DNA from: Escherichia phage vB_EcoM_OE5505 | Length of the DNA: 64,000 bases | Sequence record: NC_054926.1 | Strand: one strand, 5' to 3' | Shown: positions 2,302 through 8,128 of the stretch, in pieces | How the letters are laid out: the number at the start of each line of letters is the position of its first letter | Numbering within the stretch: position 1 is the first letter of the stretch | Notes under the pieces: generated by a model | What the model saw: the letters and a program-made list of their open reading frames with translations, nothing else | Database searches by the model: none | Told to the model about the DNA's origin: nothing | Made by a program: the position numbers and the translations under genes

Positions 2302-2857
2302 ATTTTTCTAGTAATAAATCACTTTCAAAATTGGGATTTTCTACAAATTTATCAAAAAGATCATCAACAATATTCAAGATATTTCTTTTACTAAGAATAC
2401 GTTTATTTTCATGCTTCGTTTCAGAATCAACTATAAGAGTAAAGAAATATTTCTTTCCCTGAAATTTTACTGTAGTATCAATATAGAATAAATTTGACTT
2501 TTGTAAATTACGTTTAAACCATGCGTCACTTAAACTATAAACACCGAGATAATCAAAATCGTCGTTTAAATAACAAACCGTCCATTCAGGAGAAATGAAA
2601 TCAGTAAATTCAACATCAAAATCACACGTCAATGAATGAATTGATTCAATACTGTTAATGAGTATTCCAGGACGTATTAAAGACTTTTTACCTCTAGAAA
2701 ATCTTCCGGAAAGGCTTTCATCAGTTTCATATGAAGACCCCCAATAGTAATTACGTCCTTCTGCCATGCGTTTAAGAGCATTTAGTAATTGGTCTGGAAC
2801 ATCAACCTGTCTTTGAAACTCTTCAAACATTGAATTGAAATCACTTTGCATTTTCAT
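2249..2857 (-). CDS. Hypothetical protein (T4 e.5 position)
   Basis: 202 aa ORF, soluble, ends ...KFVKECREYVKT overlapping next gene start. Confidence 0.7.
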   Translation of the reverse strand: MKMQSDFNSMFEEFQRQVDVPDQLLNALKRMAEGRNYYWGSSYETDESLSGRFSRGKKSLIRPGILINSIESIHSLTCDFDVEFTDFISPEWTVCYLNDDFDYLGVYSLSDAWFKRNLQKSNLFYIDTTVKFQGKKYFFTLIVDSETKHENKRILSKRNILNIVDDLFDKFVENPNFESDLLLEKFVKECREYVKTITIPSK

Positions 2858-2899
2858 TCCTATTTACTCCAAGTAATAGGGGCCCGAAGCCCCTTATCA

Positions 2900-3493
2900 T
2901 TATTTCAGAGAATTAATATATTCCTGAACATCGGCAGAGGTAGTTTCAACCCCAGAAATATTACCATTAAAGGTTTCAACTCGAGCAAGAGTATCTTCAA
3001 TATCAACCTTAGTCAGTGCTGCAATTTCAACTACATCATCAGCAGTACTAATTCCAAGGGCATTCGCTGCACGAGTTTCACGGATATATTCCAATTTAAC
3101 CGCAAGTTCTTGACGAGCATCATCTAACTCAACTACTTTCTTGGCGATTTCAATTCGCATTTCAGCATAACCGTCAGCCTTAGTAGTCAACTGCTCAGCT
3201 GTTCGACGATATAGTAAACCGAGTTTAGCATGCATTGTTACATCTTGGCCTTCGGAAAGAAGTTTACGAATTTCACGCTCTTTTGATTCGGCCTGTCGAT
3301 TCTTTTCGATAACAAGTTCACGAATACGTTTTTCTTCGTTAATAGATTTAACAGAAGCAGTTTTTAGATCTTTAATTTTATCAAGTAGTTTTGCTGCTGC
3401 AGCAGTATACTGTTCTTCGACAGATAGATTTTTAGCCATAGCAGAACCAAGTTTAGTGCGAATAAACTCAACAATTTTCTTCAGTGTGTTCAT
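2900..3493 (-). CDS. Hypothetical coiled-coil protein (T4 e.6 position)
   Basis: 197 aa ORF, strongly alpha-helical/charged heptad-like composition. Confidence 0.7.
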
Positions 3494-4087: not shown

Positions 4088-4333
4088 TTATTTACCTAGT
4101 TTACTTATTATAGCTTCTGCAGCAGCTTTTAGCTTAGATGCAGTGTTAATACGATTTTTAATTTCAGTATACGCATCGCCAAGAACATCAAGGCTATCAG
4201 AATAAACACTTACACTATTGCGTTCGCTATTTGAAATAGAACCTTTAGTTTTGCGGTCAAAATCGGTGTACACGTCTTGAAGATCGCGGGCTGCCTTCTT
4301 TGCATCATCCAATGCATCAAGAGCTTTATTCAA
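4088..4333 (-). CDS. Internal-protein-like ORF, probable C-terminal part of a frameshifted IP gene
   Basis: 81 aa ORF with no ATG (only TTG start); contiguous with 4330-4650 in a different frame. Confidence 0.5.
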   Translation of the reverse strand: MNKALDALDDAKKAARDLQDVYTDFDRKTKGSISNSERNSVSVYSDSLDVLGDAYTEIKNRINTASKLKAAAEAIISKLGK

Positions 4334-4650
4334 AGCATTAACGTATTTTTAGTGTCGAACATATTCTTAGAAATTTTAACAGGTGCGCGTTCAGGAGTAG
4401 CTAACACAGATTTAGGAACCTGAGCGCCAGATGCCAATTTCTTAGAAATTTTGAAAAATGCTTTATTGAATTTATTTTCTTGACTCATTGTAAAAGAACT
4501 ATTATCGATGTTGTACATTTCAATAGCTTTAGCTTTCCACTTAAGAAAATCGCCGCGGTCTTTTGGGTCCAATTGGAAGAATACTTTAGTAAGATCTGCT
4601 TCAGATGGTAATTTTGCTGCTTCGGTTAAAAATTCGGCATAGGTTTTCAT
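4330..4650 (-). CDS. Capsid-targeted internal protein (IP-like), N-terminal part
   Basis: Starts MKTYAEFLTEA, matching the T4 internal-protein capsid targeting sequence (MKTYQEFIAE-type); Ala/Lys-rich. Confidence 0.7.
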   Translation of the reverse strand: MKTYAEFLTEAAKLPSEADLTKVFFQLDPKDRGDFLKWKAKAIEMYNIDNSSFTMSQENKFNKAFFKISKKLASGAQVPKSVLATPERAPVKISKNMFDTKNTLML

Positions 4651-4740: not shown

Positions 4741-4768
4741 AAAAAGCCCCAACCTTTCGGTCGGGGCT
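4741..4768 (-). terminator. Rho-independent terminator (copy 1 of duplicated element)
   Basis: Minus-strand AGCCCCGACC-GAAA-GGTTGGGGCT followed by TTTTT; downstream of ORF ending 4776. Confidence 0.65.
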
Positions 4769-4775
4769 AAGAATG

Positions 4776-5210
4776 TCATTTGATTTGTTTAGCAGACCAA
4801 ATGCGGTCTTTAATAATTTTTTGGATGTCTTCAACATACTCAAGAGAGTGAACATGTGGATTATCTTTGAAACTATAAGCACGGGCTAACTTTTGGCCTT
4901 CGGTTTTGATTACTAAAAGCTCTTTAAGGATAGCTTCATATTTAGCGATAATTCCTTTAACGATATTTTTTTCTTGTGCCGCTTTAGGATCTGCTTTAGG
5001 AGCAGGTTTACCCGAAGCCTTTGCAAAAGCAGCGCCAGTAGCAACTAAACTTTTCCAGGCCATACTAACTGCATTTCCCGTAAATCCTTCCGCTTTCATG
5101 TCGCGTGCAAACTGGAATCGCGATTCATCAGAAGCATCTTTATAGGAATAATTTACCCGCGGCAATGGCAGCTTTTGCAACAGCTTGAATTTCGGTGCTA
5201 GATGCTTCAT
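4776..5210 (-). CDS. Internal-protein-like protein, C-terminal part (frame-shifted relative to its CTS leader)
   Basis: 144 aa ORF; Ala/Lys-rich; N-terminal 22 codons overlap CTS-leader ORF in another frame. Confidence 0.6.
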   Translation of the reverse strand: MKHLAPKFKLLQKLPLPRVNYSYKDASDESRFQFARDMKAEGFTGNAVSMAWKSLVATGAAFAKASGKPAPKADPKAAQEKNIVKGIIAKYEAILKELLVIKTEGQKLARAYSFKDNPHVHSLEYVEDIQKIIKDRIWSAKQIK

Positions 5211-5250
5211 TTAACACCGCTTCATTTAAAAATTGAGTATATGATTTCAT
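5140..5250 (-). CDS. IP capsid-targeting leader ORF (MKSYTQFLNEA...), 36 codons then stop
   Basis: ATG at 5248-5250 preceded by AGGAAATAAG RBS and late promoter; CTS-like N-terminus; stops at 5140. Confidence 0.45.
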   Translation of the reverse strand: MKSYTQFLNEAVLNEASSTEIQAVAKAAIAAGKLFL

Positions 5251-5288
5251 CTTATTTCCTGTTTTAATTTGTAGATTTAATATACTAA

Positions 5289-5296
5289 TATTTATA
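5289..5296 (-). promoter_or_regulatory. T4-type late promoter box TATAAATA
   Basis: TATAAATA on minus strand about 40 nt upstream of CTS-leader ATG at 5250. Confidence 0.55.
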
Positions 5297-5298
5297 CC

Positions 5299-5326
5299 AA
5301 AAAGCCCCAACCTTTCGGTCGGGGCT
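5299..5326 (-). terminator. Rho-independent terminator (copy 2, identical to 4741-4768)
   Basis: Identical hairpin plus T-run; lies between the stable-RNA region and the IP late promoter. Confidence 0.6.
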
Positions 5327-5329
5327 AAG

Positions 5330-5633
5330 CCTTGCGGCAACCTTGTCGGGGTTCCACCTGCTAAGGCAAGTGTTTGTACGAAACGCCGGGATTCGAACCC
5401 GGTTATTAAGTAGTTGACGCTACTCAATATTTTTAAAAGGCCATATCTCGACCATATCCGAACGTTCCGTCAAAAACGCTACTCGGCTTACGGCAAAGAT
5501 ATTTCCTCGAATCGATAATTCGGTGCGCCGTTTCTGCTGTGATAGTAAAGAGCCAGAACACAGTAAAACTGTGGGAGGAAACTATACTCCAGGGAACATC
5601 AGTCCGACGACTTACCGGTAGCGACCCGGTTTC
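5330..5633 (-). ncRNA. Candidate stable small RNA(s) at the distal end of the tRNA cluster
   Basis: No ORF; tRNA-like T-arm CCGGG-TTCGAAT-CCCGG at 5386-5402 but no complete cloverleaf; position matches where T4 has stable RNA species 1/2. Confidence 0.3.
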
Positions 5634-5984
5634 TTAATATTCTTTTAAAGAATCAATATATTCACGGCGTTTACGCCACAAATCAATTGCTTCATACGCG
5701 GATTCAGCATTTCGAATTAGCCGGCATTTATGTAAAGACTTATGATTTTGATATTGTGTAGATAACGGAATTGTATCTAAAAGGTCTTTACGATCAAAAT
5801 ATTCGTAACCATCTAAACCAAATGAACGATTTTTGAGAAATTGCCAATGACCATATTCGTTTTCGACATAAACATAATCTGCATGCTGATAAAGCAAATT
5901 AATTACACGTTCAGAAATAACAGTATCATTATGATTAAAATAGAATGTTAAATCATGAACTACTAAATAAACATTACCTTTCAT
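5634..5984 (-). CDS. Hypothetical protein within tRNA cluster
   Basis: 116 aa ORF between tRNA-Arg and the RNA region, same strand. Confidence 0.6.
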   Translation of the reverse strand: MKGNVYLVVHDLTFYFNHNDTVISERVINLLYQHADYVYVENEYGHWQFLKNRSFGLDGYEYFDRKDLLDTIPLSTQYQNHKSLHKCRLIRNAESAYEAIDLWRKRREYIDSLKEY

Positions 5985-6002: not shown

Positions 6003-6078
6003 TGGTCGAGGCAGTAGGGATCGAACCTACGACCTAGGACTTAGAAGGTCCTTGCTCTTCCTTCTGAGCTATGCCCCG
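6003..6078 (-). tRNA. tRNA-Arg (anticodon UCU)
   Basis: Hand-folded cloverleaf, 76 nt, anticodon loop CUUCUAA, T-loop TTCGATC, CCA encoded. Confidence 0.85.
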
Positions 6079-6082
6079 TAAT

Positions 6083-6158
6083 TGGGGTGACCGATGGGAG
6101 TCGAACCCATGACTACGAGAATCACAATCTCGAGTTCTACCAACTGAACTACGGCCAC
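6083..6158 (-). tRNA. tRNA-His (anticodon GUG)
   Basis: 76 nt cloverleaf, anticodon loop UUGUGAU, discriminator C73 typical of tRNA-His; closely resembles E. coli tRNA-His as recalled. Confidence 0.8.
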
Positions 6159-6272
6159 ATTAATACCTACTCCAACAATCAAGATGTCTTCACACGAAAT
6201 TAAGAGAAGAGTGATCAGTTCAACCCCTATAATCGCGTCAAGTAGATATTAATGTGACAGTTGTCACAAATT

Positions 6273-6347
6273 TGGCGGACGTGATAGGATTCGAACCTAT
6301 AACCAATCGCTTAACAGGCGATCGCTCTGCCATTGAGCTACACATCC
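6273..6347 (-). tRNA. tRNA-Asn (anticodon GUU)
   Basis: 75 nt cloverleaf, anticodon loop CUGUUAA, T-loop TTCGAAT, CCA encoded. Confidence 0.8.
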
Positions 6348-6351
6348 AAAT

Positions 6352-6438
6352 TGGTGGGGAGTGGTGGAGTCGAACCACCCGAGTCGCAATGACAATGGAT
6401 TTACAGTCCACACCGCTACCTCTACGGGATAACTCCCC
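6352..6438 (-). tRNA. tRNA-Tyr (anticodon GUA), type II
   Basis: 87 nt with long variable arm, anticodon loop CUGUAAA, perfect acceptor GGGGAGT/ACTCCCC. Confidence 0.8.
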
Positions 6439-6447
6439 AAATTAATT

Positions 6448-6522
6448 TGGTGGCCCTGGGTGGAATTGAACCACCATCTGGCGATTATGAGTCGCTTGCT
6501 TGAACCTTCCAGCTACAGGGCC
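6448..6522 (-). tRNA. tRNA with CAU anticodon (Ile-lysidine type or Met)
   Basis: 75 nt cloverleaf, anticodon loop CUCAUAA; T4 tRNA-Ile also carries CAU. Confidence 0.75.
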
Positions 6523-6531
6523 AAATTTTTC

Positions 6532-7017
6532 TTATTTTATGTAATATTTATTTAAAAACTTTCTAGCTTGAGTATGGCTAACATTTATAGCGTTTGCATA
6601 ATTTTTAATAAAACCTCGTTCATCCATATTAAAATTTTCTAATATTTTTAATCGTCTAATTATCTCATCTTGGCTTAAGGTACTTGCATTATTTTTAGAA
6701 ATTTTTTCTAAAGACTGCACTGAGTGTTTTCGACCATTAAAATTAAAATTTTTAGGTTTTGGAGGAAATCTATCATTTAGTCTCGCATCTTTTGTATTTT
6801 GATTATTAGTTGCGCAATATATGTTATTTAATGAGTATGGTCCTTTATCACCAAAACGACACATACAGTATTCATGACCCTTTCTTCCACGCTTATCATA
6901 ATTTCCTGTTGATTTCCACCAATTTAACCACTCATCAAAAGTTAAATTCCATTCAATGTTTCTACGTATAGCAGAATTCCGCTGAGAAATATATTTTGCA
7001 TAATCTTCTTTCATCAC
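6532..7017 (-). CDS. Homing-endonuclease-like protein (degenerate HNH-like N-terminus, C-terminal HTH)
   Basis: 161 aa; Cys/His motif GHEYCMCRF...LNNIYCATNNQN; C-terminal ...NVSHTQARKFLNKYY resembles the HTH tail of the adjacent HNH ORF. Confidence 0.6.
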   Translation of the reverse strand: MMKEDYAKYISQRNSAIRRNIEWNLTFDEWLNWWKSTGNYDKRGRKGHEYCMCRFGDKGPYSLNNIYCATNNQNTKDARLNDRFPPKPKNFNFNGRKHSVQSLEKISKNNASTLSQDEIIRRLKILENFNMDERGFIKNYANAINVSHTQARKFLNKYYIK

Positions 7018-7061
7018 AAATTTCTCTACTTATTACATGCACTAAGCTAAATCAGCAAAAC

Positions 7062-7151
7062 TGGCGGAGGCGATAGGATTTGAACCTATGAGTCGCCGGA
7101 GCGACTGCCGGTTTTCAAGACCGGTGCATTAAACCACTCTGCCACGCCTCC
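7062..7151 (-). tRNA. tRNA-Ser (anticodon UGA), type II
   Basis: 90 nt, long variable arm, anticodon loop CUUGAAA, acceptor GGAGGCG/CGCCTCC, CCA encoded. Confidence 0.85.
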
Positions 7152-7153
7152 AG

Positions 7154-7227
7154 TCTCCATACAAGGATTTGAACCTTGGACCTCCTGATCCCAAATCAGG
7201 CGCTCTACCAAACTGAGCTACACGGAG
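7154..7227 (-). tRNA. tRNA-Pro (anticodon UGG), CCA not encoded
   Basis: 74 nt, anticodon loop UUUGGGA, only 2 nt from tRNA-Ser (Pro-Ser dimer as in T4). Confidence 0.8.
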
Positions 7228-7237
7228 TAAATTAAAT

Positions 7238-7311
<74 letters not shown>

Positions 7312-7316
7312 AAATT

Positions 7317-7403
7317 TGGTGCGAGAAGTGGGACTCGAACCCACAAGGAAATCATTCCGCAGCATTTTAAGTGCTGTGCCTTTACCAATTTGACCATTCT
7401 CGC
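7317..7403 (-). tRNA. tRNA-Leu (anticodon UAA), type II
   Basis: 87 nt, long variable arm, anticodon loop CUUAAAA, acceptor GCGAGAA/TTCTCGC. Confidence 0.85.
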
Positions 7404-7409
7404 GCTATA

Positions 7410-8018
7410 TTATTTATTACGTGAAAAAGACTGTTCTATCAATTCTGGACACTTTCGTTCTATCCATTTTCTAGCTTTTTGTGGGCTTATACCTATTATT
7501 TTAGCAGCTTTACTAACCCATCCAAATTTAAAATAATCGATTTTAACTAATTCTTCGTAAATTTCATCAGTTAAAATCTTTTCATTAATATTTACCAGTA
7601 AATGATATAATTTATTATCATTAGCAATTTTAATGAATCTTTTATAGTTTCCGCCTTTACTTAAACCTAATGAAGTAATTGCAGATGATATAGTAGCCGA
7701 ATTTAATAGTGCGTTTAAAATTTCTTCATCACTAACATTATAACGCTTTCTATTATTTTTAATATTTTTACCAGCAAAAGTATCAGTTTGCGAATGGCAA
7801 TTTGGACATAATAATCTTAAATTTGATTTAAGATGATTTTTGTTATTTCCATCAATATGGTCTAATTGTAGAACAATATGCTTATTTTGCCATTTTGAAA
7901 TTTTACAAATTGCACACTCATATGGAAAAATATTTTCTTTTATTATTTTGTCTTTTAGCTTTCCTGTACTAAAATTTGGATGTTTTCCTTCAAAAATTTC
8001 AGCTAATTTAGTATCCAT
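7410..8018 (-). CDS. HNH homing endonuclease
   Basis: CAICKISKW...LDHIDGNNKNH...LLCPNCH HNH/zinc motif; C-terminal HTH; ATG at 8018 (ORF track extends to a TTG at 8042). Confidence 0.85.
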   Translation of the reverse strand: MDTKLAEIFEGKHPNFSTGKLKDKIIKENIFPYECAICKISKWQNKHIVLQLDHIDGNNKNHLKSNLRLLCPNCHSQTDTFAGKNIKNNRKRYNVSDEEILNALLNSATISSAITSLGLSKGGNYKRFIKIANDNKLYHLLVNINEKILTDEIYEELVKIDYFKFGWVSKAAKIIGISPQKARKWIERKCPELIEQSFSRNK

Positions 8019-8128
8019 AATATGATTCCCAATTATTAACAAAGGCTCTTAAGCAAGAACCCTTGATGATAGAGGGTATTAATCAGTGCGATATGAGTTA
8101 ATAATAACAAATAATTCTTAAAGCATAT

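Follow-up and report, generated by a model that had tools for sequence, protein, structure and literature searches.

Orthologues of the T4 stable RNAs rnaD and rnaC in Escherichia phage vB_EcoM_OE5505: comparative folds, a putative loop-loop contact and possible functions

We analysed a stretch of 64,000 nucleotides (nt) from Escherichia phage vB_EcoM_OE5505 (NC_054926.1), hereafter the window, in which about 300 base pairs (bp) without evident genes lie beside a cluster of transfer RNA (tRNA) genes. Judged by sequence alignment, this region carries the minus-strand orthologues of two stable RNAs of bacteriophage T4, rnaD (species 2 RNA) and rnaC (species 1 RNA). The source of the DNA is a T4-like phage; positions 5280-5680 are 100% identical to Escherichia phage YUEEL01 (Tequatrovirus). 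The element is not new: the T4 annotation already includes it, and a T4-like genome is expected to have it. What is added here is the anatomy of the window, covariation-backed folds for both RNAs, a putative kissing loop in rnaC, the phylogenetic spread of the two RNAs, and the gap that they mark in public annotation and in Rfam. Taken jointly, and leaving any decoy function aside, the account of identity, structure and biogenesis given below appears to us highly probable.

Identity of the region

A blastn search with positions 5280-5680 matched 808 phage records, among them that of T4 (MT984581.1), where it covers two misc_RNA features that come straight after tRNA-Arg, namely rnaD ("small, stable RNA; species 2 RNA") and rnaC ("species 1 RNA"). 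The single base by which rnaC differs from the T4 copy is located within hairpin P2 (T4 U, here C). The alignment of rnaD is less uniform (95/118, 80.5% identity): the 5′ 46 nt and the 3′ 25 nt are identical, and the central ~45 nt, which form the tip of a rod, are a different allele. Covariance models built from homologues detected both RNAs, with scores of 167.5 bits for rnaC (model R1) and 104.9 bits for rnaD (model R2). Synteny is as in T4, with the tRNA cluster, rnaD, rnaC and the terminator all on the same strand, except that T4 rnaD directly follows tRNA-Arg, whereas here an open reading frame (ORF) of 116 amino acids (aa) intervenes. For rnaC no difference of substance from T4 was found: the strand, the position after rnaD, the trailer and the terminator are the same, and the comparative fold and kissing loop proposed below would apply equally to T4's copy.

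A first-pass annotation of this DNA had described positions 5330-5633 as a structured, ORF-free interval with an isolated T-arm, and had suggested either a counterpart of T4's two stable RNAs or a decayed tRNA. The first suggestion was borne out, as blastn and alignment place the region on T4 rnaD and rnaC, and the comparison with species 1 and species 2 RNA gave a match for each. The limits needed correction. The region lies directly downstream of a minus-strand tRNA cluster in the direction of transcription and is therefore read on the minus strand, as a unit whose 5′ end, 5637, overlaps the stop codon of the ORF upstream and which reaches to about 5298. Structure beyond chance was confirmed: positions 5290-5640 fold with z = -5.29, and rnaC alone with -50.2 kcal/mol (z = -4.56). 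The T-arm at 5386-5402 (CCGGGATTCGAACCCGG on the plus strand) reads CCGGG-UUCGAAU-CCCGG on the minus strand; it is not isolated, but forms part of rnaC next to an acceptor-like stem. No cloverleaf could be folded because the acceptor partner of this T-arm lies 125 nt upstream and because a D-arm and an anticodon arm are lacking. The inverted repeat CTTGC...GCAAG was located at 5331-5335 and 5366-5370; it is present, but within the 3′ trailer (5330-5374) and thus outside both mature RNAs. Duplication of the terminator was also confirmed, with GCCCCGACCGAAAGGTTGGGGC found at 5304-5325 and 4746-4767 and no copies expected by chance. The proposed Rfam check gave a divided answer: Rfam 15 holds no family for either RNA, but the covariance models built from homologues detect both.

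No ORF of at least 60 aa lies wholly inside 5330-5633. Just frames of 32-42 aa were found, together with one of 95 aa (5140..5427) that starts at TTG and prolongs the next gene upstream, in the same frame, across the terminator. Small protein-coding genes over rnaC and rnaD could draw on these 32-42 aa frames, which occur on both strands, and on the coding sequences (CDSs) that some GenBank records carry there. No frame is kept across homologues, substitutions track base pairing rather than codons, and the length of the rnaD centre shifts by steps that are not multiples of three (116-123 nt in total), which argues against coding genes to the point where this reading is effectively excluded. 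In many public records "hypothetical protein" CDSs run across rnaC and rnaD, and in phage G4507 (NC_054919.1, 446-539), MK327928 and NC_054920 part of rnaC is labelled "tRNA-Lys(ttt)" or "tRNA-OTHER"; these labels look like mis-annotations.

Comparative folds of rnaC and rnaD

Homologues of rnaC were collected from annotated phage records and by a pattern search of IMG/VR and metagenomes. They belong to Tequatrovirus, Mosigvirus, Karamvirus, Kanagawavirus, Moonvirus, Winklervirus, Tegunavirus, Jiaodavirus, Marfavirus and an unclassified Erwinia phage. Covariation supports a fold with an acceptor-like stem, a T-arm, a long hairpin (P2) and a short hairpin (P3), whose coordinates are given in Table 1. 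In a plain MAFFT alignment of 19 distinct homologues 94.4% of the cells were paired and 22 of 53 pairs showed compensatory changes, against 2-5 in slid controls. The corresponding values for 24 homologues were 94.7% and 37 of 53 (6-11 in slid controls), in an alignment that was fitted to the secondary structure of the model and so favours it. The acceptor-like stem joins the two ends of the RNA through 7 bp. Copies of the T4 group have two central U-U mismatches in it; in Tegunavirus (CAGUCCG/CGGACUG) and Jiaodavirus (CGGUAUG/CAUACCG) all 7 bp are perfect, and CGA:UCG is replaced by CGG:CCG in other lineages. The T-stem occurs as CCGGG/CCCGG, CCUGG/CCAGG and CUUGG/CCAAG. Loops and single-stranded stretches are nearly invariant, as are the stems, and include a conserved A/U-rich single strand, UUUAAAAA, at 5430-5437.

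The apical loops of P2 and P3 are complementary at 6 of 6 positions in all homologues (24 plus 15), and the complementarity ends precisely at the loop boundaries. Two loop positions covary through four pair types: UUGACG/CGUCAA in most genera, UUGAUG/CAUCAA in Tegunavirus, UUGGCG/CGCCAA in Marfavirus and UUGCAG/CUGCAA in Jiaodavirus. The 15 further homologues came from a scan of viral and metagenome collections in which the two variable positions of each loop were left free, and every one of them was complementary. Since the covariance model did not contain the interaction, loop-loop complementarity serves as an independent test of it. There is, in sum, good comparative evidence for a predicted 6-bp kissing contact between the P2 and P3 loops of rnaC.

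The second RNA, rnaD, consists of a 5′ hairpin followed by a long irregular rod. The loop of the hairpin is invariant among the 11 close (high-scoring) homologues of alignment A5; in other genera the hairpin is retained with a different sequence. The inner core of the rod is conserved (a GACUGA/GAAA internal loop, UGUU/CAGC and a CCC bulge), and its tip is hypervariable in both sequence and length, giving a total of 116-123 nt. With weak distant homologues included, 92.7% of the cells were paired and 19 of 35 pairs were compensatory. A model built from 11 variants found matches of 17-30 bits within the tRNA clusters of Karamvirus, Moonvirus, Kanagawavirus, Marfavirus and Erwinia phage COW86c. 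These distant rnaD-like matches keep AAGUCGUCGG, UCCCUG and ACGGCGC, and the changes in their stems are compensatory. We conclude that rnaD is a structured family separate from, and unrelated to, rnaC. Pairing of the rnaD 5′ loop GUCGCUA with the repeated GAGUAGCGU motifs of rnaC, and of the rnaD-like loops of other genera with loop 2 of rnaC, was considered and rejected, as no consistent covariation was observed for either.

Table 1. Coordinates in the window of the two RNAs, their structural elements and neighbouring features
Feature	Position	Strand	Basis or remark
rnaD orthologue, 116 nt	5522..5637	minus	alignment to annotated T4 rnaD; its start overlaps the TAA stop codon of the ORF before it
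rnaD 5′ hairpin ACCGG-GUCGCUA-CCGGU, 5-bp stem, 7-nt loop	5614..5630	minus	closing pair covaries A-U/G-C
rnaD 3′ strand CGGCGCAC	5523..5530	minus	pairs with GUCGUCG (5605-5611), closing the long rod; one pair G-C to C-G elsewhere
Spacer GAAUUA, 6 nt, rnaD to rnaC	5516..5521	minus	alignment to T4
rnaC orthologue, 139 nt by T4's annotated ends	5377..5515	minus	alignment, 138/139 identical to T4
rnaC acceptor-like stem, 5′ strand CGAUUCG (nt 2-8)	5508..5514	minus	pairs with 5379-5385; covariation
rnaC long hairpin P2 (nt 9-78, ~70 nt, bulged, ~25 bp), occupying the D-arm position of a tRNA	5438..5507	minus	20/25 pairs compensatory
rnaC P2 apical loop UUGACG, putative kissing partner 1	5468..5473	minus	complementarity and covariation
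rnaC hairpin P3 (nt 87-112; 10-bp stem, 6-nt loop), occupying the anticodon-arm position	5404..5429	minus	9/10 pairs compensatory
rnaC P3 loop CGUCAA, putative kissing partner 2	5414..5419	minus	exact complement of 5468-5473
rnaC T-arm CCGGG-UUCGAAU-CCCGG (nt 114-130), 5-bp stem, 7-nt loop	5386..5402	minus	sequence, fold, covarying stem
rnaC acceptor-like stem, 3′ strand CGUUUCG (nt 131-137)	5379..5385	minus	directly 3′ of the T-arm, as in tRNA
rnaC tail U-ACA, in the place of discriminator and CCA	5375..5378	minus	T4's annotated 3′ end is 5377
3′ trailer, 48 nt, small hairpins, nearly identical to T4	5327..5374	minus	fold; retained after rnaD in Dhakavirus
Intrinsic terminator of the tRNA/rnaD/rnaC unit: 10-bp GC-rich stem, GAAA loop, U5	5298..5326	minus	
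T4 late-promoter box TATAAATA for the next gene	5289..5296	minus	
Second, identical terminator copy after the next gene	4745..4768	minus	
116-aa ORF, phrog_3355 (unknown function), between tRNA-Arg and rnaD	5634..5984	minus	absent from T4
Nine tRNA genes, upstream of rnaD/rnaC and co-oriented	6003..7403	minus	ARAGORN and Rfam

Relation to tRNA, biogenesis and distribution

Like a canonical tRNA (RF00005), rnaC has a 7-bp end-to-end acceptor stem, an adjacent 5-bp T-stem with a UUCGAAU loop, and a discriminator-like base followed by NCA or CCA, and it is located in tRNA arrays. It differs in its length of 139 nt and in lacking a D-arm, a 7-nt anticodon loop and a variable region; two large hairpins and the putative kissing loop replace the anticodon/D half. 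In the five lineages checked, rnaC begins 6-9 nt after a tRNA gene, and the next tRNA follows within a few nt in three of them. The arrangements observed were Trp-rnaC-Gly (Karamvirus and Erwinia phage COW86c), Phe-rnaC-Trp (Winklervirus), Met-rnaC-Gly (Moonvirus) and Pro-rnaC (Jiaodavirus). Against the rnaC model genuine tRNAs obtain weak scores, which come from their acceptor and T arms; in the alignments inspected, their anticodon arm is placed on P3. The CA of the 3′ tail is invariant and the base before it varies, giving U-ACA in the T4 group (including the copy studied here), U-UCA in Tegunavirus and, in Marfavirus and Jiaodavirus, a genuine U-CCA. The T-loop is UUCGAAU in most homologues and UGCAUGC or UGCAUCC in Kanagawavirus and Winklervirus variants. 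In these variants G55 occurs with CGCC in the basal internal loop of P2, as compared with U55 and GGCC elsewhere. It is tentatively suggested that T-loop position 55 may contact the GG of the P2 internal loop in an elbow like that of G18G19; the change is seen in four sequences and may represent a single event.

Whether rnaC is itself a chargeable tRNA-like molecule, an unusual tRNA or a rescue RNA of the transfer-messenger RNA (tmRNA) type, has to be weighed here. Its acceptor and T arms, and the CCA encoded in Marfavirus and Jiaodavirus, would fit such a role. One RefSeq record calls nt 46-139 a tRNA-Lys(ttt), and a weak Rfam tRNA-Sec match covers the same span. Against it, ARAGORN reported 0 tRNAs and 0 tmRNAs at 5375-5637, and the Rfam 15 scan of the window gave just nine tRNAs at the gathering threshold, with no tRNA or tmRNA over rnaC and no family for rnaC or rnaD. 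When E-values up to 10 were admitted, all matches in the region were below threshold, including that to tRNA-Sec (17 bits, gathering score 47). Other relaxed matches, to families of small nucleolar RNAs, long noncoding RNAs and small RNAs (sRNAs), with E-values of 0.6-9, were far under their gathering scores and were taken as chance. The covariation-backed fold has acceptor and T arms only, without a match to RF00005, and as to tmRNA there is neither a tag ORF nor a match from ARAGORN or Rfam. The tRNA-Lys or tRNA-Sec reading of nt 46-139 needs an internal 8-bp "acceptor" between ACGGAACG and CGUUUCGU, a candidate that was rejected: in most genera this pairing has lost strength, and in Tegunavirus it no longer exists, while the end-to-end acceptor stem of Tegunavirus is perfect. 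The supposed anticodon loop CUUUUAA is not conserved, other genera having UCUU, UUUG, UUAC or UUCU in its place; the P3 loop counts 6 nt, not 7; and copies of the T4 group end in ACA. We consider a chargeable rnaC very improbable.

A tRNA-like acceptor/T module, formed by the two ends of an RNA or set within a larger one, is also found in the tRNA-like domain of tmRNA and in the bacterial Y-RNA-like YrlA, which borrow tRNA-processing or tRNA-binding proteins through it. ARAGORN found no tmRNA in rnaC, and Rfam gave no tmRNA or YrlA match even at E-values up to 10; rnaC lacks the tag ORF, the G3-U70 pair and the Ro-binding stem of these RNAs.

No terminator separates rnaD and rnaC from the tRNAs, and the first strong one lies at 5326..5298. 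Based on this architecture and on the known maturation of T4 tRNAs, we infer that both would be co-transcribed with the tRNAs and then excised from the polycistronic precursor. An acceptor/T minihelix is the substrate form for RNase P and for the enzymes of 3′-end and CCA formation, and rnaC would offer one of 12 bp. Its 5′ end would probably be cut by RNase P, which would see a tRNA, and its U-NCA end would probably be handled by 3′-trimming and CCA enzymes.

Several points weigh against this account of structure and processing. The covariation of the loops would fit intermolecular dimerisation as well as it fits an intramolecular kissing loop. The tail of the T4 group is ACA rather than CCA, and the Kanagawavirus and Winklervirus variants have the non-canonical T-loops mentioned above, so recognition of rnaC by tRNA enzymes is not guaranteed. 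The role ascribed to RNase P in the maturation of species 1 RNA goes back to the T4 literature of the 1970s. For rnaD, the alignment was fitted to the model, and the folding energy was no better than that of shuffled sequences (z = -0.19), so that the fold is supported by covariation and not by energy. The distant rnaD homologues, with their 17-30 bits and rough E-values, are suggestive. Finally, the mature ends of both RNAs were taken from T4's annotation.

The conservation of rnaC exceeds that of the genes around it. In 692 of 765 records its identity is 95% or more. Between the window and a Mosigvirus, identity is 98.6% for rnaC, 80.5% for tRNA-Arg and 62.7% for the gp1 protein; between the window and Karamvirus it is 83.5% for rnaC and 68-77% for the tRNAs. 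Either extreme constraint, or module exchange among co-infecting phages, or both, would produce such values. A decayed tRNA pseudogene, as the first-pass annotation had allowed, or a non-functional spacer would explain a T-arm without a cloverleaf and the failure of tRNA finders. It is contradicted by these identities, by strong purifying selection, by the many compensatory changes (37 pairs), by the lack of a D-arm or anticodon arm in any homologue, and by accumulation of the RNA in T4 infection (PMC9697503), and is effectively excluded, as is the coding reading.

The two RNAs are distributed independently. In Dhakavirus rnaD is followed directly by the trailer and rnaC is cleanly absent; in a Gaprivervirus phage rnaD is followed by unrelated sequence; and in several genera rnaC lies far from any rnaD-like element. 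From the occurrence of rnaD without rnaC and of rnaC far from rnaD we infer that they are independent genes which happen to be neighbours in Tequatrovirus and Mosigvirus. Alignment of the Dhakavirus vB_EcoM_005 (2831-3010) with positions 5300-5637 of the window puts the rnaC gap exactly between ...CACCGAA and CACUUGCC..., a clean junction which suggests that the rnaC module was precisely deleted or inserted. Within 12 kb downstream of gene 1 no rnaC was detected in Dhakavirus, Gaprivervirus, Krischvirus, Slopekvirus, Acinetobacter Lazarusvirus or Aeromonas Tulanevirus, the rest of whose genomes could hold it. Outside the T4-like phages, three matches in bacterial genomes and five in metagenomes to a loop-agnostic pattern did not fit the rnaC model and were dismissed as chance.

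Several observations were made on neighbouring genes. The gene after the terminator (phrog_2280, unknown function; 4776-5251, minus strand) is split into the frames 5251..5140 and 5210..4776 by a 1-nt insertion near 5151 relative to the YUEEL01 gene, to which it is otherwise 99.6% identical; either a frameshift or an error of sequencing would account for the split. A paralogue of phrog_2280 at 4650..4330 follows the second terminator copy, and gene and terminator therefore look tandemly duplicated. Within the tRNA cluster, a 161-aa ORF (phrog_16521, weakly related; 6532-7017, minus strand) lies between tRNA-Ser and tRNA-Met, and an HNH homing-endonuclease ORF (phrog_14736; 7410-8042, minus strand) just upstream of tRNA-Leu. 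At the two sites the closest relative, YUEEL01, has tRNA-Gln and tRNA-Thr and no ORFs; mobile endonuclease genes appear to have reshaped the cluster, which lost two tRNAs in the process.

The 114-nt spacer from tRNA-Asn to tRNA-His (6159-6272, minus strand) folds with -32.7 kcal/mol (z = -4.36) and is conserved in 354 phage records, with 81-83% identity in Klebsiella Jiaodavirus and Enterobacter phages. Its 14-bp closing stem, AUUAAUAUCUACUU/GGAGUAGGUAUUAAU, stands immediately 5′ of tRNA-His in six phages of at least four genera (two of the phages are unclassified), with three compensatory pairs and a variable interior; there is no Rfam family for it. The spacer may represent a structured RNA in addition to rnaC and rnaD, or else a hairpin that serves the processing of the tRNA cluster. 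In Aeromonas phage Aes012 (NC_020879.1; 7691-7784, minus strand) tRNA-Lys and tRNA-Asn are separated by an unannotated tRNA-like element of 94 nt with a T-arm, a CCA present in the gene and the acceptor stem GGAUACU/AGUAUCC; it may be a long-arm tRNA or another tRNA-like RNA.

Possible functions

Deletions of the T4 tRNA region are reportedly viable on laboratory hosts, so that any function of rnaC and rnaD is conditional. In T4 infection accumulation of RNAC has been shown by Northern blot, both RNAs were classed as late, and the function of RNAC and RNAD is stated as unknown (PMC9697503, PMC3014915). No paper assigning a function to rnaC or rnaD was found in our literature search. In the T4-like phage BW1 all three independent lines adapting to E. 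coli ECOR34 gained one and the same single-nucleotide polymorphism (SNP) in rnaD, and virulence on ECOR34 rose from 0.17 to 0.98 in phage with this SNP (PMC12685909). It also counts against a reading based on this result that the SNP could already have been present in the ancestral stock. Because of the BW1 SNP and of dispensability on laboratory hosts, a conditional, host-specific role is suggested.

Along these lines, rnaC and rnaD would be accessory RNAs tied to particular hosts. In such a scheme rnaC would be a non-decoding tRNA mimic that shows its acceptor/T-arm surface to a host tRNA-binding factor; candidate targets would be a processing enzyme or, on the side of defence, a nuclease or transferase directed at tRNAs, and the kissing-loop domain would keep rnaC out of translation. 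This is the reading of function that we prefer, possible but rather doubtful. A more specific version is unlikely as it stands: rnaC would be a dedicated mimic, with a possible G18G19-like elbow and locked by the kissing loop, acting as a decoy or sponge against a tRNA-targeting immunity factor or a tRNA-binding enzyme, and rnaD, whose core is conserved and whose tip is hypervariable, would be a second host-specific determinant, in line with the ECOR34-adaptive SNP. Precedents come from phage T5, whose tRNA-Tyr acts against retron Ec78 and whose tRNA-Lys acts against PARIS, so that phage tRNAs counter tRNA-targeting immunity (bioRxiv 10.1101/2023.03.15.532788; PMC11464382). The T5 tRNAs are decoding tRNAs that replace cleaved host tRNAs, whereas rnaC cannot decode and is not known to interact with any defence system, and they offer an analogy for the proposed role of rnaC, not evidence.

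The RNAs might instead be passive cis elements, stable by-products that serve precursor processing and 3′ protection without a role in trans. In Tequatrovirus the pair closes the operon on its 3′ side, with the terminator coming next; the trailer is structured; and T4 strains deleted for the region are said to grow on laboratory hosts. In at least six other genera, however, rnaC lies within the tRNA array and not at its end. Dhakavirus has rnaD, trailer and terminator without rnaC, which makes rnaC dispensable for 3′-end formation. The near-invariance of loops and single strands, and a conservation of rnaC above that of the tRNAs which it is supposed to protect, are also hard to reconcile with such a role, as is the altered host-specific virulence caused by a point mutation in rnaD (PMC12685909). 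We regard a purely cis-acting role as improbable.

Antisense action on phage or host mRNAs would make rnaC and rnaD base-pairing regulatory sRNAs, an explanation that we find quite improbable. They have been called regulatory and classed as late (PMC9697503), and the single strand UUUAAAAA of rnaC or the hypervariable tip of rnaD could be a target seed. The two most conserved loops of rnaC would, however, be occupied by their mutual pairing, antisense action has no use for an acceptor/T-arm architecture, and the complementarity between the rnaD 5′ loop and rnaC is not consistent across genera.

For annotation the value of these results is modest: rnaC and rnaD are missing from Rfam and are blank or mis-annotated in most records of T4-like phages, and the comparative model would permit the definition of an Rfam-style family. 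The question that they raise is an old one, that of abundant RNAs conserved beyond the phage's own tRNAs, and it is now easier to test. The acceptor stem, the T-arm and the putative kissing loop of rnaC, the separate rnaD family, and the status of the two RNAs as independent modules provide experimental handles. If true, the doubtful mimic or decoy role would give a function to two RNAs that have been orphaned for ~50 years.

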